Under the pieces are notes generated by a model. It was not told the origin of the DNA, searched no databases, and saw only the letters and a list, made by a program, of their open reading frames with translations. From Candidatus Aenigmatarchaeota archaeon (GTDB lineage: Archaea; Aenigmatarchaeota; Aenigmatarchaeia; Aenigmatarchaeales; JACQIB01): a stretch of DNA of 46,537 nucleotides. Shown in pieces: positions 7,437 through 43,701 of the stretch. The translations under genes and the position numbers were made by a program. How positions within the stretch are numbered: the stretch's first letter is position 1; every line of letters begins with the position of its first letter. The stretch lies in NCBI GenBank assembly GCA_046760225.1, contig JBHIDR010000003.1, forward strand, positions 1 through 46,537. The letters are read 5' to 3'.

Positions 7437-8959
7437 AGCCTTTCCTCCAATAACTTCTCAGTAAGGGAGCGCTTCCTTTTCTTAGCTGTTTTTTTGTTTG
7501 GCTTTAGGCCTGCCTTTTTTAGGGCAATTTCCCAAGAACCGAATCTTTTTCTATAAAGATACTGGTTTGGTATGGACTTGTCTGTATTTAGTTCTCCTTT
7601 TAGTGGTGTTCTTCCGAGCTCTTCTGCTTTTTTCCTGAGGAAATCAAGGAGTTCTTGATCAGTGTATTTCTTTTTGTACACCCTCATATACGGTTCCAGG
7701 CCTGCTTCCTTTACTGCATTCTTCCAAGAGCCAAATCTCTTGTAATAAACACCTGGGTATGGCATAGAGTCATCCTTAATTACTTCTTCTATAGTTGGTG
7801 TTCTTCCGAGTTCTTCGGCTTTATCTTTAAGAAGCTCTAGCAGTTCCTCGTCTGTGTAGTCCTTTCGCTCACAATTGATATCCAGACCTGCTTCTTTTAA
7901 AGCCTTGTTAAAGGAGCCGAACCTTTGATTATAAGTATGTGCACTTGGTATGGACTTGTCCTTGTTCATTTCCATTGTGGTTGGTGGTCTTCCAAGCTCC
8001 TTTGCCTTTTCCTTAAGAGCTTTAATGAGCTCTTCGTTTGAGTATTCTCGGTATTTTGATTCTAATCCTGCTGCTTTTAAGGCACTGTTCCAGGAACCAA
8101 AATGTTTACAATAAGTATTTACACCTGGCATGTTTTTGTCTGTTTCTATTTCTCTTGCAGTTGGTGCTCTACCCAGATCATCTGCCTTATGCTGGAGAAC
8201 TTCAATAAGCTTCTCTTGTGTATAATTATGTATTTCTAAGCATGCTTCTTCTAGGGCATTGTTCCAAGAGCCAAATTTTCTCATATAGGTACTTGAACGT
8301 GGCATGGATTTGTCTCTGTCTATTTCTCTTTTACTCGGCGTCTTGCCCAGCTCCTTGGCTTTGTTTTGTAAGAGCTCGATGAGCTCTTGTTCCGAATATT
8401 CGTGTTTAAAATCTCTATTTAATTCTATACCTGCTGCTTCAAGGGCTTTGTTATAGGAACCAAACCATTTTATGTAGGTAGACGGATTTGGCATTGACTT
8501 GTCCGCTTTTATATCTTCTGTAGTCGGTGTCCTGCCCAGTTCTTCTGCCTTTTTCTGAAGATATTCTATGAGTTCTTCCTTTGAATAATATTCACGGTTC
8601 CTGTCCAAGCCTGCTTCTTTCAGGGCGTTGGTTAAGGAACCAAACCTGTACCGATAAGTAGTTGAAGATGGTATTGATTTGTCTGCAGTTATTTCTTTTT
8701 GGGTTGGTGTTCTACCCAGTTCTTTTGCTTTTTTCTTGAGAAGCTCTAGTAGTTCCTGATCTGAATAATATTCCTTATTAACATTCAAACCTGCTGCTTC
8801 CAGGGCCTTGTTATAAGAACCGAATGTTTTTGTGTAGATATATACAGAAGGTATGTCTTTGTCCGCGTTTACTTCTCTTCTAGTGGGTACTCTGCCTAAC
8901 TCTTCTGCCTTCTCTTGTAGTTTCTCGATAAGATAGTCATCAGTATATTTTTCACTCAT
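7433..8959 (-). CDS. Protein of 8 tandem ~60-aa homing-endonuclease-associated (HNH_repeat-like) repeats, no nuclease domain
   Basis: Eight copies of Y(S/T)xxELxxxLxxKAxELG(R/K)xPTxxExxxDKS(I/M)PxxxxYxxxFGS(W/Y/F)NxALxxAGL; ATG 8959 follows GGTGA; family name from recall. Confidence 0.85.
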   Translation of the reverse strand: MSEKYTDDYLIEKLQEKAEELGRVPTRREVNADKDIPSVYIYTKTFGSYNKALEAAGLNVNKEYYSDQELLELLKKKAKELGRTPTQKEITADKSIPSSTTYRYRFGSLTNALKEAGLDRNREYYSKEELIEYLQKKAEELGRTPTTEDIKADKSMPNPSTYIKWFGSYNKALEAAGIELNRDFKHEYSEQELIELLQNKAKELGKTPSKREIDRDKSMPRSSTYMRKFGSWNNALEEACLEIHNYTQEKLIEVLQHKADDLGRAPTAREIETDKNMPGVNTYCKHFGSWNSALKAAGLESKYREYSNEELIKALKEKAKELGRPPTTMEMNKDKSIPSAHTYNQRFGSFNKALKEAGLDINCERKDYTDEELLELLKDKAEELGRTPTIEEVIKDDSMPYPGVYYKRFGSWKNAVKEAGLEPYMRVYKKKYTDQELLDFLRKKAEELGRTPLKGELNTDKSIPNQYLYRKRFGSWEIALKKAGLKPNKKTAKKRKRSLTEKLLEERL

Positions 8960-19422: not shown

Positions 19423-22400
19423 ATGACCAAAAAAATCGACCCAAGGCTTATTCCCGAGGTCAACATAGGTACGGTTGGACACTGAGCAACTTGCGGGTTG
19501 CTTGGCTAAAAACGTGGACCACGGGAAATGCGTTGCATTAGATGAAGATATGTTTATTAATAATAAGCTAATTTCAGGACAGGAATTAATGGACTTAGCA
19601 AAATCTAAAGGGAATATTGTTTTTTCAAAGAAAAATGAATGGCTATACAACATTCCAAATCTTTATACTTATAGTCTTGATTCTGAATTACAAACTGTCA
19701 GAACGAAAGCACAAGTATTTATACAGAAATATGAAGGGCCCATTCTTAAAATGATTACAAAAAATGGTAAAAGTATAAAGGCAACTAAAGAACATCCTTT
19801 GCTAATAAATGAAGGCGGTAATTTAAAATGGAAAAAAATGAAAGAGATTAAAGTTGGGGATTATATTGCTGTTTCGAATTTGGGTACATTCCCTAGTAAA
19901 ATAAAACTTAAAAATAGTTATCTCAAGGAACTAAGAAAAAGGTATCCATTAGTTATGACAAATATTGATTATAACAAACTTAAAGAAAAGACGGGAAACT
20001 TCGTTAATTTCTCTATGTTAAATGAAAAGGAATTTAGTACTTTGCGTATTTTGGGTAATTTTTCTTTAAGAGAAATAGCAAAGGCGACAAATTTTTCTTA
20101 TTCATGGATTCAGAAGGCCCTAGGCCAAAAAAGGAAAACTACAAATAATGTTAAATTAGAACTATCAAAGTTTTTCAAAAGTAATAAACATAGAATAGTA
20201 AGACTTTCTAAAAACGAAATATTGGTTGGTTATAAATCTCGCCATTCTGGAAAAAATTATACTAAATTCAAAAACATAAAGATTATAGATCAGGATATAG
20301 TAAAATGGTTTGCTTTCTTGCACGCAGAAGGAAATACTCATTATAAAAGAATAGTAGTTGTTCAGAAAAATTATCCCGAATTATTAGAAGAGTTTGAAAA
20401 GATATCTAAAAGCATATTTGGAATTGAATCTAAAATCGCATTCGGAAATAATGATGTTAAAAGATGTGAATTATATTCAAAACCGTTTATTGAATATATA
20501 TGTTTAAGGTTTGGACTTAAGATTGGGGCATCAAAGAAATCGCCTATTTGTAACTGGATACTTTCTCTGCCACCAAACCTTCAAGCTTTATTTCTAAAAT
20601 ATTTTTTTGCTTTAGAGTGTGATGTAAGAAAAAATTCAATAAAAATAACTCAAATTAATAAAAGAAATATAAATATTATCTCTACTATCTTGCACAATTT
20701 TGGAATAGAACATCACCTAAAAGAGGGTGTAAGAAAGAATCGTAATATAGAATATAGTTTACGCATAGAAGGAAAGCACAACCTTAGAAGATTTATAGAA
20801 AAAATAGGTATTTATGATAAAAACAAATCGAGAAGAGTTAAAGCGTACCTAAAAACAATTAAGCCTACAAACCCACCATCATACTCACTTGTTCCGATAA
20901 ATCCGAACATCTTGATGGAACTTTCACAAATTTTACCTAATTTCACTCTTAAAGAAAACTATTACTATTATGCGAATGGAAAGATAACCAAAATTAGATT
21001 AAATAAGATAGTTAAGGATATCGCTTTATGGTTGAAAGAATCGGAGAAGCTTAAAGATAAGGGAGATTTATATACTATAGTTAAAAATTTTAAGATTCCT
21101 CAAACAACATTAGCAAGAAAAATCAATTCTTCAAAATCTATAGTTAATAAGATACTGAAAAATAAATACAAAAACAAAATTGTAAGGAGCAAGTTAAAAG
21201 ATACTATAAAACAGTTGGCAGAAGATAAAACTAAAAGAACTGAGATTATTTATCAAAACCTTAGTTTGTTAGCATCTCCTTTGATACGTTGGGATAAAGT
21301 AAATAGAATAGAACACTTGCATTATAACGACTATGTTGTTGATTTGTTTGTACCAAAGTATCATAACTTCGTAGGAGGATTTGGTGGTATAGTATGTCAT
21401 AACAGCACCCTTATAGAAGCAATTTCTGGCCGCTGGCCTGCCCTGCATTCTGAAGAGCTGAAAAGGGGAATCACAATAAAGCTCGGTTATGCTGATGCAA
21501 CAATATACAGGTGCCCGAAGTGTGAAAAGACGCTGAGCACAGACAAGTGCCTTGGCTGCATGGAAAAAGCAGAGCTGTTGCGCACAATCTCCTTTGTTGA
21601 TGCTCCTGGGCATGAGACACTCATGGCAACTGTGCTTGCAGGTGCCAGTTTGATGGATGGTGCACTGCTCATAATTGCTGCAAATGAGAAATGCCCTCAA
21701 CCGCAGACAGCCGAGCACCTCATGGCACTTGACATCAGTGGGATAAGAAATATCATAATAATCCAGAACAAGGTAGATCTTGTTGATGAGGAAAAAGCAA
21801 TGGAGAACTACAAGCAGATAAAGGAGTTTGTGAAAGGAACTGTTGCAGAGAACGCACCCATAATACCTGTTTCTGCGCAGCAGAAGATAAACATAGATTC
21901 TGTTCTTGAGGCAATACATAAAATCATGCCCACACCAGAAAGGAAGCCAGAAGCAAACCCAAAGATGCTGGTTGTGAGGAGCTTTGACATAAACAAGCCA
22001 GGTACAGAACCACCAAAGCTCAATGGTGGGGTTCTTGGTGGTGCAATAATAGAAGGAAAGCTTAAGAAAGGTGATGAAATAGAGGTTGCACCAGTAAAGA
22101 TAAAGGACAAATGGCGCAGCATCACAACAAAGATAAAGGGCCTGCAGAAGGCAGGCAAGAACCTTGATGAAGCAGGGCCAGGAGGACTGGTTGGGGTGAT
22201 GACAACACTTGACCCAAACCTCACAAAGGCTGACTATCTTGCAGGCAGTGTTGTTGGCCTGCCTGGCAATCTTCCCTCAATCTCAAACTCCCTGAGATTT
22301 GAAGCACATGTTTTCGAGGGAATACAGCCCATAAAGATGGGAGAGCTGCTCATGATAAACGTGGGTACATCCAGGACAGTTGGGGCTGTGGATTCAATCA

Positions 22401-22522
22401 AGAAAGGAATTGTTGAGACCAGCCTGAAGCTGCCTGTTGTTGTAAGTGCTGGTGAAAGGGCTGCAATAAGCAGGAGACTTGAGGACAGGTGGAGGCTAAT
22501 CGGCTGGGGAATTCTTAGGTAG
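19423..22522 (+). CDS. eif2g: Translation initiation factor aIF2 gamma; join(19423..19480,19512..22522), contains an intein; mature ~397 aa
   Basis: MTKKIDPRLIPEVNIGTVG-H-VDHGK/STL, HSEELKRGITIKLGYA, FVDAPGHE, QNKVD, RWRLIGWG. Confidence 0.95.
19481..19511 (+). other. 31-nt BHB-type mRNA intron in aIF2-gamma
   Basis: TTGG AC^A CTGAGCAAC TTGCGG GTTGCTTGG CTAA AA^A CGT: central helix TTGG/CTAA, 9-bp inner stem, in-frame TGA 19483-19485. Confidence 0.9.
19529..21403 (+). mobile_element. Intein (625 aa) with LAGLIDADG-type endonuclease in aIF2-gamma P-loop
   Basis: GK/CVALDE start, ATKEHPLL block B, FLHAEG motif, ...GIVCHN/S end; strongly AT-rich. Confidence 0.94.
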
Positions 22523-22958: not shown

Positions 22959-23101
22959 AGTAGACTTCAGTACAATCATTCATATTGGGAGCAATTGGTG
23001 GAATTTTAGGTATTGCAGCATTCAAAAGGAAGAAGCCTGTGCGGAAGAAACGCTGAGCTGAAACTTTATATTGGCGTGCATTAAATTCTTTAGTGATAGC
23101 T

Positions 23102-23521
23102 ATGCCTGCATGCGAAAGATGTGGTAAGGGAGAAGCAGAATGGAGGTGCCAAGTCTGTGGAAAGATTGTATGTGAGAACTGCGCAAGGCCAACTGACAAG
23201 GGAGTATTCTGCGCTGACCATGTGCCAATAGAAAAGCCAAGGGGAGAAGTGAAGAAAAAGAGGGAGATAAGTGCAGGAGCAAAGGCAATAAAATCTATTT
23301 TCATTGTAATGCTGGTACTCACACTGGGGCTCGGCCTCATAGTCTCCATAGGAGAGGTCTTCATCAGCATGATTGGTATTCCGACTGATGCTGGACCTGC
23401 CCAAGGCATAATCGACATAATAATAAGGGTCAAGGGCAGCGGCACGTTGATACTTGTGGGCATGGCCATAATCACTGCACTGCTTGGAATTGCTTATATT
23501 GGAGCAAGAAGAGCAGGCTAG
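23102..23521 (+). CDS. Zinc-finger (B-box-like) membrane protein
   Basis: CxxC-x7-CxxC-x4-CxxC...CxxH followed by two TM helices. Confidence 0.75.
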   Translation: MPACERCGKGEAEWRCQVCGKIVCENCARPTDKGVFCADHVPIEKPRGEVKKKREISAGAKAIKSIFIVMLVLTLGLGLIVSIGEVFISMIGIPTDAGPAQGIIDIIIRVKGSGTLILVGMAIITALLGIAYIGARRAG

Positions 23522-23564
23522 AAAATTTATATATAGCGGGAAGCACAAAAATAAAGTGATACTG

Positions 23565-24932
23565 ATGAAACAGATTTTGATATGGGGGGCGGTTTTCACA
23601 GTGATAATGGCTGCTTCAGCCATGGCTGTGGATTTTTCAGCTGATGTCAGCGAGGAGCCTGAGGTTTTTGCAGGCGACACAGCTGTGTTTGAAGCAACAA
23701 TAACAAATGCAGGAACCCAGAACTGGTTCTCCCTGTCTGTGTTCCCAACAGACTGGATAAGGCTTGAAAGCCCGTCTGTAAAGGTCCCAGGAGGGGGCTC
23801 CTTTACTGTCAAGATATATGTAACACCACCAGAGGACACAAAGGCCGGGAGCTATAGCCTGGATTTCCATGTGCAAAAGGCCGGGGAGAGGATAGAGGTC
23901 CCTTTTATTGTCAATGTCAAGCAGAGGACATCAGCTGCCCTGATAAAGGATTTTGAGACCAGCTGCACGTCATGCAAGGACAGCGTGAATGTTTCAATGA
24001 AGATTGAGAACGTTGGCACGTCGGCAATAAAGGACGCCACTCTTTCCCTCATGCTGGGCAAAAAGGAAAAGAAAATAGAGATTGGACAAATGAACATCAG
24101 CGGCTCAACAGAAATTTCAGAGACATTCTCACTTGAAGGATATTCTCCTGGCTCCTTTAGCATAGTTGCAGTGCTGATTGGTAACGGCATCAACCTTGAC
24201 ACAGAGACAAGGGAGTTTGAGGTTGCTGTGATTGACAACATTGACATAGAAAGGGACGTGTCAAGCTTCCTTTTCGGGAGCACAATAAAGCTGGTAGCAA
24301 CCAACAAGGGCAACACAGAGAAAGAAGCAGGAATATCATCATCTGTCTCCCAGTACTTCTGGGTGGTTTACTCGGGCCCGCAGCCAGATGAAAGGGGCGC
24401 TGAATGGGTCTGGAAGAGAACACTGAAACCTGGCGAGTCTGCAGAAGTAAAGTACAGCGAATTCATATGGCCGATACCAGTCATAATGATTATCCTAGTA
24501 ATTGCAATCTTATTCAGCTACCTGCAGGCAACAGCGCTTGCTGTGAAGAAGAGGATGTTCAGGACAATGGACGAGTATGCAATGTCAATCCTGATAAAGA
24601 ACAGGGGTGCAGAGGCGCACAATGTTCTTGTAAGGGACGTCATACCCCCTACCTTCAATCTCTCAGGCAAGTTCGAGACACTGAAGCCTGTTGCAAAGAA
24701 GACCGGCTTTGGCACAGAGCTTTTCTGGAAAATAGGAAGGGTAAGGAAGGGAGAAGAGATGATACTCCACTACAGGATAAAGCCTGTGAGCAGGATAAGG
24801 GGCACAATGCAGCTGCCTGCTGCCAGTGTGAAGGCAAAGAGAGGGGACAAGACGCTGTTCGTTTATTCAGGCAAGCCAGTAATAACAGGTGCACACGGGC
24901 CCAAGCCAAAACTCAAGGTAAAGACCGAGTAG
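23565..24932 (+). CDS. Signal-peptide-bearing membrane-anchored Ig-like (CARDB/DUF11-like) surface protein
   Basis: MKQILIWG... signal, ITNAG/IENVG/TNKGN Ig-like strands, one TM, cytoplasmic IKNRG..VRDVIP domain. Confidence 0.75.
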   Translation: MKQILIWGAVFTVIMAASAMAVDFSADVSEEPEVFAGDTAVFEATITNAGTQNWFSLSVFPTDWIRLESPSVKVPGGGSFTVKIYVTPPEDTKAGSYSLDFHVQKAGERIEVPFIVNVKQRTSAALIKDFETSCTSCKDSVNVSMKIENVGTSAIKDATLSLMLGKKEKKIEIGQMNISGSTEISETFSLEGYSPGSFSIVAVLIGNGINLDTETREFEVAVIDNIDIERDVSSFLFGSTIKLVATNKGNTEKEAGISSSVSQYFWVVYSGPQPDERGAEWVWKRTLKPGESAEVKYSEFIWPIPVIMIILVIAILFSYLQATALAVKKRMFRTMDEYAMSILIKNRGAEAHNVLVRDVIPPTFNLSGKFETLKPVAKKTGFGTELFWKIGRVRKGEEMILHYRIKPVSRIRGTMQLPAASVKAKRGDKTLFVYSGKPVITGAHGPKPKLKVKTE

Positions 24933-24941: not shown

Positions 24942-25002
24942 ATCTACAGCACCAATTTCTTGATATCCCGCGATGGCTTAGTCTGGTAGAGCGACCGGCT
25001 GT

Positions 25003-25653
25003 GCGGTGAGAAAGCATGACGACACTAAAACCTATAATAGAACAACAAGGTACAGTTTCAGAAGCAAAGGCTAGAATATTGGCGAACCTCAAGGCTGATG
25101 GAAGTACATGCAGAAGCGGTACGAACTATACAAAAAAATATGAGGTACGTGATGCCGAGCAACTTAATAGGTTTGCCAAAGACCTGAAACATGTATATGG
25201 GCTGAACATAAAGCGCATGCTTAACACATCAGGAATAACAGGAATGCCCATAGAAGCTGTATACCTTAGGTCCAAATTAGCATTTGAAGATTTGCAGAAA
25301 TTTGGACGCTTCAGGTCAGAAGACTGGAATGTACCTCAGCAGATAAAAAACTCTTCCAAGCAAGTTAAGGCCGCCTTTTTAATGGCCTTTTTTGATGACG
25401 AAGGATCTGTTATCAAATCGAGAAGGGAAATACGCCTTTACTCGATAAATATTGATGGCCTTAATGAAATAGCAAAGCTGCTTGAAGAGTTTGAAATAAA
25501 GTGCAGTATACGAAGTGGTTATGGAAAACGAAGAAATGTGTTTGCCATTATAATTCGTGGCGTAGAAAACCTTGAGAGGTTTTCAAAACATATAGGTTTT
25601 GGTGTTAAGACTAAAAAAAGAAAACTAAAAAGTATGCTTTCCACTGTGGCCAA
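25003..25653 (+). mobile_element. 651-nt relaxed-BHB tRNA intron at 35/36 encoding a LAGLIDADG endonuclease
   Basis: Central helix GGCT/GGCC, 3' bulge AA^A, long closing stem GCGGTG-A-GAAAGCATG / TATGCTTTC-CACTGT. Confidence 0.82.
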
Positions 25654-25684
25654 AGGCGAGCACGCTAAGTGCTTGTTGCGTTAG
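25016..25684 (+). CDS. Intron-encoded double-motif LAGLIDADG homing endonuclease
   Basis: ILANLKADG and FLMAFFDDEG motifs; SD GGTGAG; 214 aa if read from circular intron, 222 aa from precursor. Confidence 0.9.
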   Translation: MTTLKPIIEQQGTVSEAKARILANLKADGSTCRSGTNYTKKYEVRDAEQLNRFAKDLKHVYGLNIKRMLNTSGITGMPIEAVYLRSKLAFEDLQKFGRFRSEDWNVPQQIKNSSKQVKAAFLMAFFDDEGSVIKSRREIRLYSINIDGLNEIAKLLEEFEIKCSIRSGYGKRRNVFAIIIRGVENLERFSKHIGFGVKTKKRKLKSMLSTVAKGEHAKCLLR

Positions 25685-25697
25685 CACTCGCTCGGAA
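25656..25697 (+). other. 42-nt tRNA-Tyr intron at canonical 37/38
   Basis: Inner stem GCGAG/CTCGC, CTG/CGG central pairing, 3' bulge AA^A. Confidence 0.82.
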
Positions 25698-25748
25698 ACC
25701 GGTAGATCGGGAGTTCGAATCTCCCTCGCGGGACCATTTGTGATTTTT

Positions 25749-26363
25749 ATGTCCAGTATGCGAGAGCTCAGGAAGGTCTATATGCAGAACAGGAGGCAGA
25801 TAAGGAATTTTTTGGAATCAACCAAAAATAAGAATGATGGTTTCCTGCTGCAGGAGATGTTCTTCTGCATGCTCACTTCCCAGACAAAGGCAGCCAACTG
25901 CCGTGCTTCTGTTGACAGGCTGAAGGGATGCAGGGACCTCTTTGAAGCGAACATGGAAGAAATAAGGAACTCCCTTGCTGGTGTGAGGTTCGCTGACAGG
26001 AAGGCACAGTACCTTTTCAAGGCAAGGCAAAAGCTGCCCAGGATAAAGGAGAACCTTTCCCTTTCGCCATTCGAGCAAAGGGAATGGCTGGTCGATAATG
26101 TGAAGGGAATGGGCATGAAACTGGCTTCACACTATCTGAGGAACATAGGGGTGTTTGGCCTGGCTATACTTGACGTCCATGTGCAGAGGTTCATGCAGGA
26201 AAACTGGAAGTTCCGGGGAGAAGTGGGCAAGCTGAACAGGAAGCAGTACCTTGAGAACGAGAAGGAGTTCTTCAGGCTAGCGAAAAAGCTTAAAATGAGG
26301 CCGGAGGAGCTTGACATAGCAATATGGATGCTGGGCAACAGGAGCGGCAATTTCTACGGTTAA
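25749..26363 (+). CDS. ogg: N-glycosylase/DNA lyase (8-oxoguanine DNA glycosylase, Ogg2-type)
   Basis: EMFFCMLT, GVRF, REWLVDNVKGMGMKLASHYLRNIG, AILDVH; start 25740-25758 uncertain. Confidence 0.88.
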   Translation: MSSMRELRKVYMQNRRQIRNFLESTKNKNDGFLLQEMFFCMLTSQTKAANCRASVDRLKGCRDLFEANMEEIRNSLAGVRFADRKAQYLFKARQKLPRIKENLSLSPFEQREWLVDNVKGMGMKLASHYLRNIGVFGLAILDVHVQRFMQENWKFRGEVGKLNRKQYLENEKEFFRLAKKLKMRPEELDIAIWMLGNRSGNFYG

Positions 26364-39708: not shown

Positions 39709-41259
39709 ATGGCAGAGGAGATGTTCTGGGCTGACCAGATGGCAAGGAAGGTAATCAAGGAAAGAGGAGAGAAGAGCAAGTATGTGGTAGCTGCAGGTAT
39801 AACACCATCTGGCACAATCCATATAGGAAATTTCAGGGAAATGATAACAGTTGAACTTGTTGCCCGTGCACTAAAGTCTGCAGGCAAGCAAGTAAGGTTC
39901 ATCTATTCCTGGGACAACTATGACAGGATTAGGAAAATTCCTGCAAATGTTCCAAAAAGAGAAGAATTAGAAAAGTATATGGGACAGCCTGTAGTTGATG
40001 TGCCTGATACATTTGGATGCCACAAGAGTTATGCAGAACATATGGAGAAAGATGTAGCAGATGCTCTTCCTGTAGTTGGTATAATGCCTGAGTTCATAAG
40101 TCAGAGCAAGATGTACAGGGACTGCGTTTATGCTGAAGAAATAAAGACATGCATGCTTGCAAAAGAGAAAATCAGGGAGGTACTTAACAAGTTCAGAAAA
40201 GAGCCTTTGCCTGAAACATGGTTCCCTCTTCATATTTACTGTGAAAAATGCAAGAAGGATGAAGGAAGGGTAACAAGCTATGATAATGAATATGCTGTTG
40301 AATATGAGTGTACCTGTGGTCATAAGGGCAAAGTGAACTTCAAGGAAAGGGGAATAGTGAAACTTCCTTGGAGAGTTGACTGGCCAATGAGATGGCACTT
40401 TGAGAAAGTTGATTTTGAGCCGGGTGGAAAAGACCATTCTGCACCAGGTGGTTCATGGGATACAGGATCATTAATAATAAAGGTAGTTTTCAATGAAGAG
40501 CCTCCAGTATACCAGATGTATGACTTTGTAATTCCAAAGGGAGGAGGTGTAAAGTTCTCAAAGTCCCTCGGAAATGTCTTGAAGCTAACAGACGTGCTTG
40601 AAATATATCTGCCTGAAATAATCAGATTCATGTTCGCTGGAACAAAGCCGGTAAAGGAGTTCTCTATACCAATGGATGAGGACATCTTCAAACTTTATGA
40701 AGACTTCTTCAAGGTCGAGAGGATTTATTATGGAAAGGAAGATTCCTCCCGCGCAGCGCACTGGAAAAGGGTGTACGAGATGTCTGTTCCAACAGAACCT
40801 TTAAAGGAAGTGCCTATCCAGCCATCATTCAAGCACTGTGTGGAGCTTATCCATATTTACAGAAAACCAGAAGAAGCAGTCAAAAACATAAAGGAAAAAA
40901 TGGATAAGGAAGGTAGGAAGAGATACCTTGCAATGCTAGTTTGTGCAAAGAACTGGATTGACAAGTACGCACCGGAAGAATACAAATTCACTGTGAACGA
41001 AAAGGTGCCCGATGTCTCCCTCATGGATGCACAGAAATCTGCAGTAAGGGAACTCGGTGCAAGGCTGGAGGAAGCAAAAGACGAAGCTGAGATGGTAAAT
41101 ATCTTCAATGAGCTTACCAAGAAGCATGGTCTTACAACAGGGGAATTCTTCAAGGCATGCTACCTGATTCTCTTGAGCAAGGAAAGGGGGCCTAGATTGG
41201 CACCGTTCATAATGGCAATAGGCAAAGAAAGGGTTGCAAAGCTGTTCAAATCAGTTTAG
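39709..41259 (+). CDS. lysS: Lysine--tRNA ligase, class I
   Basis: GITPSGTIHIGNFRE, KLPWRVDWPMRW, EPGGKDH, KFSKSLGN, GPRLAPF. Confidence 0.96.
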   Translation: MAEEMFWADQMARKVIKERGEKSKYVVAAGITPSGTIHIGNFREMITVELVARALKSAGKQVRFIYSWDNYDRIRKIPANVPKREELEKYMGQPVVDVPDTFGCHKSYAEHMEKDVADALPVVGIMPEFISQSKMYRDCVYAEEIKTCMLAKEKIREVLNKFRKEPLPETWFPLHIYCEKCKKDEGRVTSYDNEYAVEYECTCGHKGKVNFKERGIVKLPWRVDWPMRWHFEKVDFEPGGKDHSAPGGSWDTGSLIIKVVFNEEPPVYQMYDFVIPKGGGVKFSKSLGNVLKLTDVLEIYLPEIIRFMFAGTKPVKEFSIPMDEDIFKLYEDFFKVERIYYGKEDSSRAAHWKRVYEMSVPTEPLKEVPIQPSFKHCVELIHIYRKPEEAVKNIKEKMDKEGRKRYLAMLVCAKNWIDKYAPEEYKFTVNEKVPDVSLMDAQKSAVRELGARLEEAKDEAEMVNIFNELTKKHGLTTGEFFKACYLILLSKERGPRLAPFIMAIGKERVAKLFKSV

Positions 41260-41986
41260 CGGCCGATTCTCCTGTCCCTGTTCCTGTACCACCTGAGTAT
41301 CTTATTGAACTCCCTCCTACTGAAATCAGGCCAGAGCGTCTTTGTGAAGTATATCTCTGCATAGGCTGCCTGATAAAGCAGGAAGTTGCTCAGCCTGTGC
41401 TCGCCTCCTGTCCTTATTATGAGATCAACCGGCTCGTTCACCAGAAGGAACTTATTAAATGTATCCTCTGCAAGGGGCACGGTCTTGATTCCCTTTGAAA
41501 CAAGCTTTTTGGCTGAGTTGATTATCTCGAACTGGCTTCCGTAAGCAAGAAGTATGTTCAGCACACCCTGAGTATAGTTCCTGGTAGCGTTCATAACATC
41601 CTTGGCAGCCTGCCTCACGTCCTTCCTCCAGAGAGCAGAATTCCCGACTATTTTAATTCTCAGGTCCCGTTTCCTCATTCTCTTGTCTTTCAGAAAGCCC
41701 TTGAACTCCTTGTTATAAATCCCCCAGAGCTTGTCAACCTCTTTCTTGCTCCTATTCAGGTTCTCAGTAGAAAGCGCGTAAACACTGACCACCTTTATGT
41801 TGGGATCGCCTGCGCACCACTCAGCAACATCCTTGAGCTTCTGCACACCCTTTACATGGCCCCACCATACAGGCTTTCTGTGCTTTCGGGCATAACGCCT
41901 GTCTCCGGTTAGTATTCAAACTAAATACCGTCAGGTATTATTGCCAGATGAAGGTTAGCTTTTCTGCCAGTTACGTCATCTGTGAT
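41256..41986 (-). CDS. uppS: Polyprenyl (undecaprenyl) diphosphate synthase; complement join(41256..41902,41926..41986)
   Basis: LHLAIIPDG-N-RRYA restored on removing 23 nt; YALSTEN, DLIIRTGGEHRLSNF, WPDF, RRIGR; start tentatively ATC 41986 after GGAGGTGA. Confidence 0.9.
41903..41925 (-). other. 23-nt BHB-type mRNA intron in uppS
   Basis: Minus strand CCTG ACGG TA^T TTAGT TTGAAT ACTAA CCGG AG^A CAGG; in-frame TAG inside. Confidence 0.9.
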
Positions 41987-42945
41987 GCCATCACCTCCTG
42001 TACCTTTAAAGAGAAAAACTGCCTTATGAATTTTTCTATTTCCTCTTTGCGATAAATAATAAGCACATAGTTCACCGTTTTTGTACCATTTCTGAAGCCC
42101 TTATCTGTATAAATCCCAGATACTTTGATTCCATTATCATGGAATATATGCGCACATTCCTTTAATAACCTTTTGTTATGCTGCTTAATTCGTATATAAG
42201 GCTGCTTATTACCACCAATATGAATTGTGCCGTCTGCATCAAATAGTCCAGATAAAAACAATTTTTTGAGAAAATTAATTTTGATTATAGATGGCATACA
42301 CGTTTTGTTCTTTTTGCTACCTACTGGCATGCCACAAACTTTGGTTAAAAAGAGGTGTATAACTTTAGATCTTCCAATTAGTCTGTAAAAGTTTTTCTCT
42401 TTGAAAATCGGTGGGCTATAATTAAAAAGTTCTTTAAATATTTTTCTTAAAAAAATCAAATGAGCTATATTATCACCAGTTATTCTTATTTCAGCATTGT
42501 AAGTCGAGCCGTTGCTGATTAAGTTTTTCGGATTGGCTAAGTGACCGTCGCCCATTATGTAGCCAAGCAGATACGCTAACCGAGGTGTTAGAAATTTAGG
42601 AAGTGTATATTGCCTAGAGTTCGTGCAGCCAAACCAAATGGCTTTATCAAAGAGCTCATCTTTATCTGCACCTATAAATTTAACAAGCTTTAAGGCGTGA
42701 TAAATTGGTATACCAACATCACGCTTGCTCTCACCTATCCAGTAATTCAACCTTTTTACATCAACATTAAGAAATTGTGCCATCTCCTTTCTCTTACAGT
42801 TTGCTGCATTTCGCAGAAATTCTCTCATGCCATAAAGTCTTATAAAATCATTTCCTTTCGTTCCTTGTTCATTTGTATATAGCTTGTCTAAATAGCGAGG
42901 AAACTTCATGTTTGGTTCGTGAGGAATCGTAGCTACGTTACGCAT
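41971..42945 (-). CDS. Free-standing double-motif LAGLIDADG endonuclease with N-terminal HTH
   Basis: AYLLGYIMGDG and FLSGLFDADG; KEMAQFLNVDVKRLNYW HTH-like; no intein splice residues; AT-rich. Confidence 0.88.
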   Translation of the reverse strand: MRNVATIPHEPNMKFPRYLDKLYTNEQGTKGNDFIRLYGMREFLRNAANCKRKEMAQFLNVDVKRLNYWIGESKRDVGIPIYHALKLVKFIGADKDELFDKAIWFGCTNSRQYTLPKFLTPRLAYLLGYIMGDGHLANPKNLISNGSTYNAEIRITGDNIAHLIFLRKIFKELFNYSPPIFKEKNFYRLIGRSKVIHLFLTKVCGMPVGSKKNKTCMPSIIKINFLKKLFLSGLFDADGTIHIGGNKQPYIRIKQHNKRLLKECAHIFHDNGIKVSGIYTDKGFRNGTKTVNYVLIIYRKEEIEKFIRQFFSLKVQEVMASQMT

Positions 42946-42995
42946 AATTTTTATATGCGGACATTAAATATAAAGTTATCGAAAAGGTGACTCAA

Positions 42996-43214
42996 ATGAA
43001 GAAAGTATTCGAGATAATTGATGAGATAAAGGATGAGCACAAGAAGATTGCAGAGGCATGGGATGAGAAGAAAGAGATAAGCCAGAGCCTCATGATAGGA
43101 TGGATTGACAAGAACGTGAAGCTCATGCTGGAACTAGGCAAAAAAATCGAGGAGCTTCAGGAAAGGCTTGATACGCTGCAAGCAGAAGGCAAGAAGAAAG
43201 GACTGTTCGGCTGA
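42996..43214 (+). CDS. Small coiled-coil hypothetical protein
   Basis: ATG after AGGTGA; heptad pattern; host-like codon use. Confidence 0.7.
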   Translation: MKKVFEIIDEIKDEHKKIAEAWDEKKEISQSLMIGWIDKNVKLMLELGKKIEELQERLDTLQAEGKKKGLFG

Positions 43215-43218
43215 TTGT

Positions 43219-43701
43219 CTAGAACACATCAACCTCGTCCATCATGTAATCCATAATGGACTCGTTGTCCCTATCAAACCTAAATGTGGCTCTTAGCCTC
43301 TTGTTCTGTAAAACCACAGGAATCCAGTGTTTGTCGTCCTTCCACATCTTCTCAAAGGGAAGCTTGTCCGTATCTGTCCATACTGTACTCATTTCCTCTG
43401 ACTCCTTTGGTTCACCTTCCCATCTGTCAATAAAGAACACATGAACCTTCTGGTCCCATTTCTTTTCCTTGGGCGCAAATGGAAAATAGAACGTGATCTC
43501 TGCCATCTTCTTGAGGTCACTTGGGTCTACCTTGACGCTTGTTTCCTCAAGCAATTCCCTTACAGCTGCCTCCTCTATTGTCTCATTTTCTCCAACTTTT
43601 CCACCAAAGCCATTGAACTTGCCTTCCCCGAAGCCGCGCTTCTTCATTCCTAGAAGTATCTGGTTCTCCTTGACCAAAAAGCACAGTGTTGCATCTCTCA
43701 A
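43219..43701 (-). CDS. Nudix hydrolase, MTH1/8-oxo-dGTP diphosphatase-like
   Basis: KKRGFGEGKFNGFGGKV..ETIEEAAVRELLEET Nudix box, ESEEM, MWKDD. Confidence 0.92.
   Translation of the reverse strand: MRDATLCFLVKENQILLGMKKRGFGEGKFNGFGGKVGENETIEEAAVRELLEETSVKVDPSDLKKMAEITFYFPFAPKEKKWDQKVHVFFIDRWEGEPKESEEMSTVWTDTDKLPFEKMWKDDKHWIPVVLQNKRLRATFRFDRDNESIMDYMMDEVDVF

Follow-up and report, generated by a model that had tools for sequence, protein, structure and literature searches.

How did a 23-nt insert without an open reading frame (ORF) come to lie in the catalytic DGNRR codons of uppS, the cis-prenyltransferase gene, directly behind a free-standing LAGLIDADG homing-endonuclease gene? The question is raised by a 46,537-nt stretch of DNA (the window, by which we mean that whole stretch) from G000, an 83%-complete, 851-kb genome of an Aenigmarchaeota archaeon from a hydrothermal vent. 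We read the two neighbours as a pair, an archaeal version of the collaborative homing of phages in which the intron is of the bulge-helix-bulge (BHB) kind, and give this reading a probability of about 0.6. From sequence we infer the cleavage site, the immunity provided by the intron, its co-conversion with the endonuclease gene, the actual splicing and an ATC start codon of uppS. Many related tiny archaea show this pairing too, a recurrence that suggests joint spread of the cutter and the mini-intron.

Read along the minus strand, a divergent promoter region is followed by a 324-aa ORF (42945 to 41971), by uppS and by the terminal part of a gene for class I lysyl-tRNA synthetase, which lies on the opposite strand. 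uppS matches Pfam Prenyltransf over the whole profile at 2.9e-65, is the sole such match in G000, and is broken into two frames (41256..41915 and 41921..42100). Removal of 23 nt joins these frames as ...ANLHLAIIPDG / NRRYARKHRKPVWWGH..., the universal cis-prenyltransferase motif (DG / NRR). Exon 1 (41926..41986, minus strand), delimited by alignment with G001, encodes ITDDVTGRKANLHLAIIPDG and the first base of the Asn codon, with a putative ATC start at 41984-41986, and exon 2 (41256..41902, minus strand), recognised by Pfam Prenyltransf, encodes the rest of the enzyme in 215 codons and a stop. Between them lies the ORF-less insert (41903..41925, minus strand), which splits the Asn codon of DGNRR (A / AC) and was recognised by a BHB scan, by its fold and by the restored frame.

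In every test that we applied, the insert is a BHB intron, which would be spliced from the RNA. The archaeal splicing endonuclease cuts after the second base of each bulge, and cuts placed in this way remove exactly 23 nt. The account given in PMC5829648 agrees with this rule. The whole motif (41898..41935, minus strand; drawn by hand and then scored) consists of an outer helix CCUG/CAGG of 4 bp (41932-41935 with 41898-41901), a central helix ACGG/CCGG with three pairs and one A.G mismatch (41928-41931 with 41905-41908), the 3-nt bulges UA / U (41925-41927) and AG / A (41902-41904), and an inner helix UUAGU/ACUAA of 5 bp (41920-41924 with 41909-41913). When 6030 boundary pairs around the site were scanned for a strict BHB, the 23-nt splice that restores the motif ranked first with no ties, so that the first-pass annotation of this DNA, which had placed an ORF-less micro-intron within the DGNRR codons, was correct on this point. 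Folding of 71 nt of the RNA gave -19.2 kcal/mol (z -3.06; 1 of 200 shuffles equal) and the same helices with an offset of one pair at the bulges. Four DNA runs of a single hydrothermal-vent study (the runs may include the source sample) gave contigs that agree at the insert and at the start, and therefore the insert is no one-off assembly error. As for the splicing machinery, two adjacent splicing-endonuclease ORFs (PF01974; 163 and 202 aa) are present on contig C2 of G000 (22994-24328, L049), each with a catalytic domain, which suggests a two-subunit tRNA-splicing endonuclease, the type reported to accept relaxed BHB motifs; the RtcB ligase is encoded as well, its own gene being interrupted.

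The 324-aa ORF (41971..42945, minus strand) is a free-standing LAGLIDADG homing-endonuclease gene of what we call family A. Pfam LAGLIDADG_3 (PF14528) matches residues 228-308 of the protein, that is, the second half only, at 2.5e-15 (57 bits, cut-off 22.5). The translation has a first LAGLIDADG motif LAYLLGYIMGDGHL at residues 123-136 (42538..42579, minus strand), with Asp133 at the catalytic position, and a second motif LFLSGLFDADGTI at residues 229-241 (42223..42261, minus strand), with Asp238, within the Pfam match. D133 and D238, the acidic ends of the two LAGLIDADG helices in one chain, are invariant in all six family-A proteins, as are nearly all residues of A124-L136 in the first motif and F230, G233, F235, D236, D238 and G239 in the second. 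The predicted structure (predicted local distance difference test, pLDDT, 62) has an N-terminal helical part resembling a helix-turn-helix (HTH) and two alpha-beta-beta-alpha-beta-beta-alpha halves in the right order; the best solved neighbours of this family-A model are I-DmoI chains (probability 1.0, 22% identity), at a low template modelling (TM) score of 0.35 for a model of pLDDT 62. The first-pass annotation had described an AT-rich endonuclease gene that ends at 41971, 45 nt from the intron, and both details hold: its GC content is 0.35, compared with 0.48 in uppS exon 2 and 0.44 in the window, and exactly 45 nt (41926-41970) lie between its stop codon and the insert. A larger intron enclosing the endonuclease gene was ruled out, as there is no upstream exon and exon 1 stands between the endonuclease gene and the intron.

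The two genes are also interlocked at the start of uppS. The uppS ribosome-binding site GGAGGTGA (41991..41998, minus strand), read directly from the DNA, is embedded in the endonuclease codons ...QEV, and in all six family-A loci a purine-rich ribosome-binding site lies within the last endonuclease codons and the endonuclease stop lies at or beyond the uppS start. The overlap claimed earlier between the endonuclease gene and both the Shine-Dalgarno sequence and the start of uppS thus stands for the former, whereas at the latter there is no canonical start codon, only ATC. This ATC (41984-41986) is likely the start of uppS: exon 1 aligns codon for codon with MTDDVEGNSRGLHIAIIPDG (MTDDVEG...) of the same-genus G001, the ATC falls where G001 has ATG, 4 nt past GGAGGTGA, and the contigs of all four runs agree on it. 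The other five family-A loci have ATG.

To place the locus among its relatives, uppS 5' ends were read at 29 loci of the order, at 16 loci of the class flagged by an open frame that barely exceeds the match, and at the loci reached from the endonuclease side. We found the motif interrupted at 19 loci, by inserts of 13-41 nt at one of two sites 11 nt apart. Site 1 (15 loci) splits the Asn codon after its first base (A / AY), as in the window, and site 2 (4 loci), 11 nt upstream of site 1, splits an Ile codon (AT / A). The site-1 inserts measure 23 nt in G000, 13 in G004, 21 in G026 and G046, 20 in G065, 19 in G108, 16 in G118, 33 in G123 and G128, 26 in G135, 18 in G292, 40 in L051, 33 in L052, 41 in L055 and 35 in L056, and those of site 2 measure 31 nt in G023, 29 in G265, and 30 in G267 and G268. 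Exon 2 is intact in all 19 loci, and every insert can be removed in frame at the BHB cut positions. A further 32 uppS loci are uninterrupted at both sites, among them that of G001, the sole other genome of the window's genus. The open-frame flag has false negatives (it missed G065), and the counts are those of the loci read.

Strict-BHB scans of 17 loci ranked the motif-restoring splice first in 7, second or third in 4, seventh to ninth in 2 and 22nd to 29th in 4, the poor ranks belonging to the shortest introns (bulge-helix-loop) and to introns with an offset inner stem. Among the 13 distinct site-1 introns, the central helix has 4/4 pairs in eight and 3/4 in five. A GAC Asp codon is partnered by G in the intron (8/8), a GAT codon by A in 4/5 and by G, a wobble pair, in 1/5. 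Such Watson-Crick pairing in 12 of 13 introns was reached by 676 of 100000 shuffles, a count that ignores kinship, and the co-variation implies at least two independent compensatory changes.

Other ways for the cell to deal with the insert were considered and rejected. Translational bypass of the T4 gene 60 type would require a take-off and landing pair, and among five loci checked by eye a matching GGA pair is seen only in G004 and L052 and is absent in L051, G026 and G118. Read-through or frameshifting fails at G026 and G292, whose inserts are in frame yet carry stop codons and so cannot be read through. Retention of the insert in the protein is ruled out, given that an insertion inside DGNRR could not be tolerated. 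We also observed a third interruption site of uppS, about 20 codons downstream after GH(K/R)(Y/E)GA, at L044, L059, L060 and L061 (G125, G123, G128 and G135); in G125 this is the only interruption, and no endonuclease gene lies upstream.

Directly 5' of uppS we found 17 LAGLIDADG genes, in metagenome-assembled genomes (MAGs) of Aenigmarchaeota and 'Micrarchaeota', which fall into five divergent families. Family A (G000, G004, L051, L052, L055, L056) comprises proteins 47-63% identical to one another and above the Pfam LAGLIDADG_3 cut-off. Family B (G023, with uppS interrupted, and G034, with uppS uninterrupted) has an HTH_3 N-terminus and the motifs IIAHTLFDGT and LRACFIDEGS, without a match to a LAGLIDADG profile; its model, built on six sequences (pLDDT 65.5), has I-DmoI as best match (TM 0.58 on the target, E 3e-4), followed by PI-SceI and I-SceI. 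Family C is found in G026, G046, G108 and G065 (broken into two ORFs in the last), the G046 protein being above the Pfam cut-off, family D in G267 and G268 (Pfam scan of the G268 protein only, 7e-14), and family E, above the Pfam cut-off and about 40% identical to D, in G123, G128 and G135. All five families carry helix-turn-helix domains, and the acidic residues that end both LAGLIDADG helices are kept in every family. Between A and B, blastp found no detectable similarity, and between A and C or D it found 22-34% identity over longer alignments. Judged by these comparisons, the five families are independent arrivals.

The link between endonuclease and intron was counted in two directions, intron-first and endonuclease-first, as a guard against circularity. 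Starting from the intron, a LAGLIDADG gene lies directly 5' of 11 of the 14 interrupted uppS found by the open-frame flag alone, compared with 1 of 30 uninterrupted ones (upstream DNA sufficed for a judgement at 30 of the 32 uninterrupted loci, among which G034 is the sole carrier). Starting from the endonuclease, 16 of the 17 uppS-adjacent LAGLIDADG genes stand beside an interrupted uppS (A 6/6, B 1/2, C 4/4, D 2/2, E 3/3). No family uses both sites: A, C and E are confined to site 1 (13/13) and B and D to site 2 (3/3). A search for family A in one genome per species (185,579 species) and in the metagenome collection of the Joint Genome Institute (JGI) gave five further places at 47-50% identity, all facing an interrupted uppS, one of which was G004 again (identical over the compared stretch). 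Close relatives of family C (at least 51% identity) were found in 4 of 371 genomes of the class, all at interrupted uppS, and family B in 2 of the 371, G023 and G034. Families D and E have five uppS-adjacent relatives, with uppS interrupted in 5/5, and many weaker relatives (30-39% identity) elsewhere. Co-occurrence of endonuclease and intron across genomes had been named beforehand as one check on the proposed pairing, and it is what these counts give; a pattern named as refuting it, an intact endonuclease commonly beside an intron-less uppS, was seen just once in the 17 loci (G034).

The endonuclease genes also appear to have moved. The G004 locus (L050), in the same taxonomic family as the window's genome, is labelled Aenigmatarchaeota, and L051 and L052 are labelled Micrarchaeota. 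Compared across the two host groups, family-A proteins share 44-49% identity and the accompanying UppS only 33-35%, while within the groups the order is reversed (endonuclease 50-63%, UppS 62-79%); since family A is more alike than UppS across the groups, the endonuclease has moved between uppS genes that are deeply diverged and have little in common apart from the motif. The states seen at the locus range from neither element in the same-genus G001, through a broken endonuclease with an intron in G065, whose family-C gene is split into two ORFs beside a still interrupted uppS, to the intron only (G118, G292, G265) and the endonuclease only (G034). An invasion-decay cycle is known for homing endonucleases, and this range of states fits such a cycle, without proving it.

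How the endonuclease is built into the 5' end of uppS can be seen at several loci. The endonuclease frame of L052 continues through exon 1 and reaches its stop codon within the intron. The family-D ORF of G267 and G268 (L040, L041) shares the frame of uppS exon 1 and likewise ends within the intron, so that the spliced mRNA would carry an endonuclease-UppS fusion frame. The family-B proteins (P0003, L010, L015) start with a peptide like the UppS N-terminus (...TDDVKL..DIH), MYLTDDVKLKQDIH... in P0003 against ...ITDDVKLNRPDIHIAV in the UppS of G027, and, judging by this peptide, family B apparently inserted within the uppS 5' end and makes use of the start found there. At four loci, a search for direct repeats or target-site duplications flanking the endonuclease genes gave only short, chance-like matches.

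We therefore propose, where the counts and layouts above are our guide, that the locus is a two-part selfish element made of the free-standing LAGLIDADG gene before uppS and the ORF-less 23-nt BHB intron in its catalytic DGNRR codons. The enzyme would recognise and cut the uninterrupted ...IIPDGNRR... DNA in genomes that lack the element, and the break would be repaired by copying a genome that bears it. As the cut site would be only about 20 codons into the gene, the conversion tract would include both endonuclease and intron, and would bring along the 5' end of uppS, rebuilt ribosome-binding site included. The carrier's own chromosome would stay uncut, its recognition sequence being split by the intron, and the tRNA-splicing endonuclease (from the two adjacent EndA genes) and RtcB would remove the intron from the RNA, so that UppS is still made. 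The place just before uppS would be the nearest harmless one for a 1-kb ORF within co-conversion distance, the target being about 20 codons from the gene start.

Does the same happen at other genes? The first-pass annotation had suggested a route by which tiny BHB introns enter the most conserved motifs, and support comes from elongation factor EF-2 in G314, where the layout of the uppS locus recurs at another gene. There, on contig C8 (L097, 534-1760), a 409-aa LAGLIDADG gene, 30% identical to family C, lies directly before EF-2, which is split as ...IRNIGIVAHI / DHGKTTFSD... by a 32-nt BHB insert (1849-1880); the sole BHB splice that restores the motif ranks third in the local scan. The suggestion is tempered by interrupted genes that have no endonuclease next to them, namely rtcB, aIF5B and the uppS of G118, G292 and G265. 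In the window, an aIF5B-like GTPase gene (14486-16226, plus strand) has a 22-nt BHB insert (14523-14544) in GH / VDHGKT, with a central helix TTGG/CCAA (4/4), and the gene upstream of it is radical-SAM-like (S-adenosylmethionine) by its Cys-rich motif and is no endonuclease; no sign of this insert was seen in 14 relatives, judged by open-frame length. aIF2-gamma (about 19423-22519, plus strand) is split by a 31-nt BHB insert (19481-19511) that takes the same P-loop position and resembles the aIF5B intron in its ends, and 15 nt past it lies an intein of about 625 aa with LAGLIDADG-like motifs (about 19529-21403, plus strand). The shared ends and P-loop position of the two introns suggest spread between paralogues.

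The rtcB gene of G000 (contig C35) has a 30-nt in-frame insert at about 1545-1574 in HEGY / GFPIGG and a 32-nt insert at about 1646-1677 in GGIG / YDINCG. G001 has neither, G008 shares the GGIG / YDINCG site, and G023 and G016 share the HEGY / GFPIGG site. Beside the micro-intron rtcB of G016 we observed two LAGLIDADG_3-positive fragments (211 and 97 aa; L088, 357-1191, minus strand), 300-1100 nt 5' of it on the opposite strand, possibly a decaying endonuclease. A genome-wide BHB-score search for split genes over 5094 adjacent ORF pairs was noisy: of 103 filtered candidates, rtcB alone was conspicuous, and the search is blind to short first exons and to stop-free in-frame introns. Taken together, these cases lead us to a broader and tentative idea, for which we see somewhat worse than even odds: homing endonucleases, whether free-standing, intein-borne or intron-borne, may create and spread protein-coding introns in ultrasmall archaea, where attack on a universally conserved motif would select alleles split by a minimal BHB, and the insert would hitch-hike between genomes and paralogues and stay as an orphan after the endonuclease decays.

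Four other explanations of the uppS locus have to be weighed. By trans-homing, the enzyme would cut or nick near the uppS 5' end, off the intron site, the intron would be a passive co-converted passenger, and protection would come from base differences in the target; T4 MobE mobilises the nrdB intron in this way, as described in PMC2790892. The two intron sites in use 11 nt apart, the apparent entry of family B into the old uppS 5' end, away from the intron site, and the endonuclease without an intron in G034 all agree with it. It accounts poorly for five unrelated or barely related families that are each found with the same 15-nt motif interrupted, with one site per family in 16/16, and a passive passenger should be lost more often than once in 17, so that we regard trans-homing as unlikely, though as the likeliest of the four. 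Two independent selfish elements might instead have met at one hot spot, with no functional basis for their association, the micro-introns spreading alone, for example by reverse splicing and recombination or by gene conversion between paralogous motifs, and the endonuclease genes having a separate preference for the space before uppS. An upstream endonuclease at 1/30 intron-less against 11/14 interrupted uppS is hard to reconcile with such a coincidence, as is the finding that close relatives of families A, B and C occur almost only at uppS; even with the endonuclease-less micro-introns of rtcB, aIF5B and aIF2-gamma, the likeness of the aIF5B and aIF2-gamma introns in ends and P-loop position, and about ten LAGLIDADG genes in G000 to speak for it, we give it an outside chance.

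The LAGLIDADG protein might also be domesticated, as a regulator of uppS or a helper in splicing the micro-intron (like group I maturases or WhiA) rather than a nuclease, and the helix-turn-helix domains in all five families and the translational link of the gene to uppS would suit such a role. We think this very unlikely: the acidic residues of both LAGLIDADG helices are kept in every family, the distribution is patchy, with absence in the same-genus G001, five separate domestications would be required, and BHB splicing is a protein-only process that needs no maturase. Hardly credible, finally, is a broken gene in which the insert is the scar of faulty repair after endonuclease attack, uppS is a pseudogene and the function comes from the symbiont's host. 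While the absent canonical start codon and the reduced genome could be read in this way, exon 2 is intact in 19/19 interrupted loci with every insert removable in frame at BHB cuts, the central helix co-varies, and uppS is single-copy in G000.

Several observations weigh against collaborative homing at uppS itself. Chief among them, the micro-introns in rtcB, aIF5B and aIF2-gamma of G000 have no free-standing endonuclease beside them; a neighbouring endonuclease is therefore not needed for an intron to persist, another route of spread may exist, and for this reason we rate collaborative homing no higher than about 0.6. At uppS, 3 of the 14 intron-first loci (G118, G292, G265) have no endonuclease, and G034 has an intact family-B gene beside an uninterrupted uppS, where 7 of 30 bases differ from the spliced G023 site, three of them at the intron position. 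The Fisher p-values for the intron-first counts (5e-7, or 4.5e-6 with one count per genus) overstate the case, since related genomes are not independent, and the upstream ORFs of uninterrupted loci were mostly judged by eye, with Pfam run on six. Because the open-frame flag missed at least one locus (G065), the intron-less class is uncertain among the unread loci. The A.G mismatch, together with the poor scores of 4 of the 17 scanned introns under the strict rule, means that a splicing endonuclease of relaxed specificity would be needed, and in the exon-1 frame there is no ATG, GTG or TTG between the upstream stop and the intron. Ongoing mobility shows no sign in the population of the four vent runs, whose contigs across 40800-43400 contain no alternative alleles lacking the endonuclease or the intron, although contigs drop rare variants and so say little on polymorphism.

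The nearest known counterpart of the proposed pair is in cyanophage, in which Zeng, Bonocora and Shub reportedly described collaborative homing in 2009, with free-standing F-CphI beside psbA carrying an ORF-less group I intron. As there, a free-standing endonuclease gene at uppS stands beside a conserved gene with an ORF-less intron in its most conserved part. Unlike the phage pair, that of uppS is in a cellular archaeon, its introns appear to be protein-spliced BHB introns of 13-41 nt instead of self-splicing group I ribozymes, and its enzyme is LAGLIDADG instead of Endo VII type. Further, the uppS target is so near the 5' end that the endonuclease precedes the gene and rebuilds its ribosome-binding site, and at least five endonuclease lineages converge on one motif. 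Archaeal rRNA BHB introns are known to encode LAGLIDADG homing enzymes such as I-DmoI, a system of the same enzyme family, intron kind and splicing machinery, and the models of families A and B both have I-DmoI as their best structural neighbour. In that system the ORF is inside the intron of an RNA gene, whereas uppS has the ORF outside a minimal intron and, being a protein gene, requires splicing before translation. LAGLIDADG inteins at P-loops and catalytic motifs are likewise selfish elements aimed at the most conserved codons, but they are removed at the protein level with the endonuclease as part of the insert, while at uppS the endonuclease is outside the insert. For phage group I introns, PMC2790892 sets out collaborative homing, with a cut at the intron insertion site, and trans homing, with a cut nearby. 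MobE and nrdB of T4, treated in the same paper, resemble the uppS pair in that an adjacent free-standing endonuclease mobilises a non-autonomous intron over a short distance with co-conversion (on the uppS side as proposed), and differ in that MobE is an HNH enzyme that nicks off the insertion site of a group I intron in a phage.

Previous studies of BHB introns in archaeal pre-mRNA concern cbf5 of Crenarchaeota (PMC2738675), which is also the pre-mRNA example cited in a 2018 paper on splicing endonucleases (PMC5829648) and, in the reference list of a 2025 paper on the same subject (PMC12397907), the only protein gene cited; a 2026 review of non-canonical splicing, in its accessible text, treats archaeal BHB splicing under tRNA only. 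The accessible text on cbf5 mentions no endonuclease partner and concerns Crenarchaeota, whereas the uppS-type cases are in DPANN archaea, in several genes, in catalytic motifs and with introns down to 13 nt. The titles and abstracts of the literature searched (subscription journals lay outside it) describe neither BHB introns in protein genes of DPANN archaea nor a partnership of such introns with endonucleases.

As far as these sources go, protein-coding BHB introns have thus been essentially a matter of one gene, cbf5. The uppS locus and its relatives give a testable mechanism, in which the endonuclease is outside the intron, the micro-intron would be both shield and passenger, and the target cannot mutate; if it is true, collaborative homing would extend from phage ribozyme introns to cellular archaea and to protein-spliced introns. 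Endonuclease-driven introns, if real, would explain why catalytic motifs are split in uppS (DGNRR), in EF-2, aIF5B and aIF2-gamma (GHVDHGK) and in rtcB (HEGYGFPIGG, GGIGYDINCG). DPANN genomes would then hide a layer of mRNA splicing, including that of rtcB, the ligase gene that the pathway itself needs, and would offer a living model of how endonuclease conflict seeds introns in protein genes. That free-standing genes of five LAGLIDADG lineages should be tied to 13-41-nt introns, placed where an essential gene of archaea encodes its catalytic motif, is not what a specialist would expect, and several lineages on one short conserved sequence form a natural panel for the evolution of specificity. 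For annotation, gene callers will truncate or miss uppS, EF-2, aIF5B, aIF2-gamma and rtcB in such MAGs, and genes of DPANN metabolism may be wrongly inferred to be 'missing'.

Some further features of the window and its relatives were recorded. Upstream of the endonuclease gene, a TATA-like octamer (42967..42974, minus strand; read from the DNA) lies 22-29 nt 5' of the ATG as a possible archaeal promoter, and it may serve a leaderless or near-leaderless endonuclease transcript; the divergent gene begins 50 nt past this ATG. Elsewhere in the window, a split tRNA (about 24969-25757, plus strand), which ARAGORN did not detect at that position, has an intron of about 690 nt with a 224-aa LAGLIDADG ORF (25010-25684) that is 37% identical to family E. 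Among the LAGLIDADG genes of G000, which number about ten, three matches are on contig C8, two of them inside a stretch read by Rfam as the archaeal 23S rRNA gene (one stretch was run), and one match on contig C18 is in a 1771-aa open frame, probably an intein. The aIF5B gene of G003 (L118, contig C14, about 7917-7929) is matched in two parts, query 1-182 and 179-558, which meet to within about 11 nt, possibly around a mid-gene micro-intron, and the rtcB genes of G003 and G004 have open frames of 977 and 1010 aa, probably with inteins.

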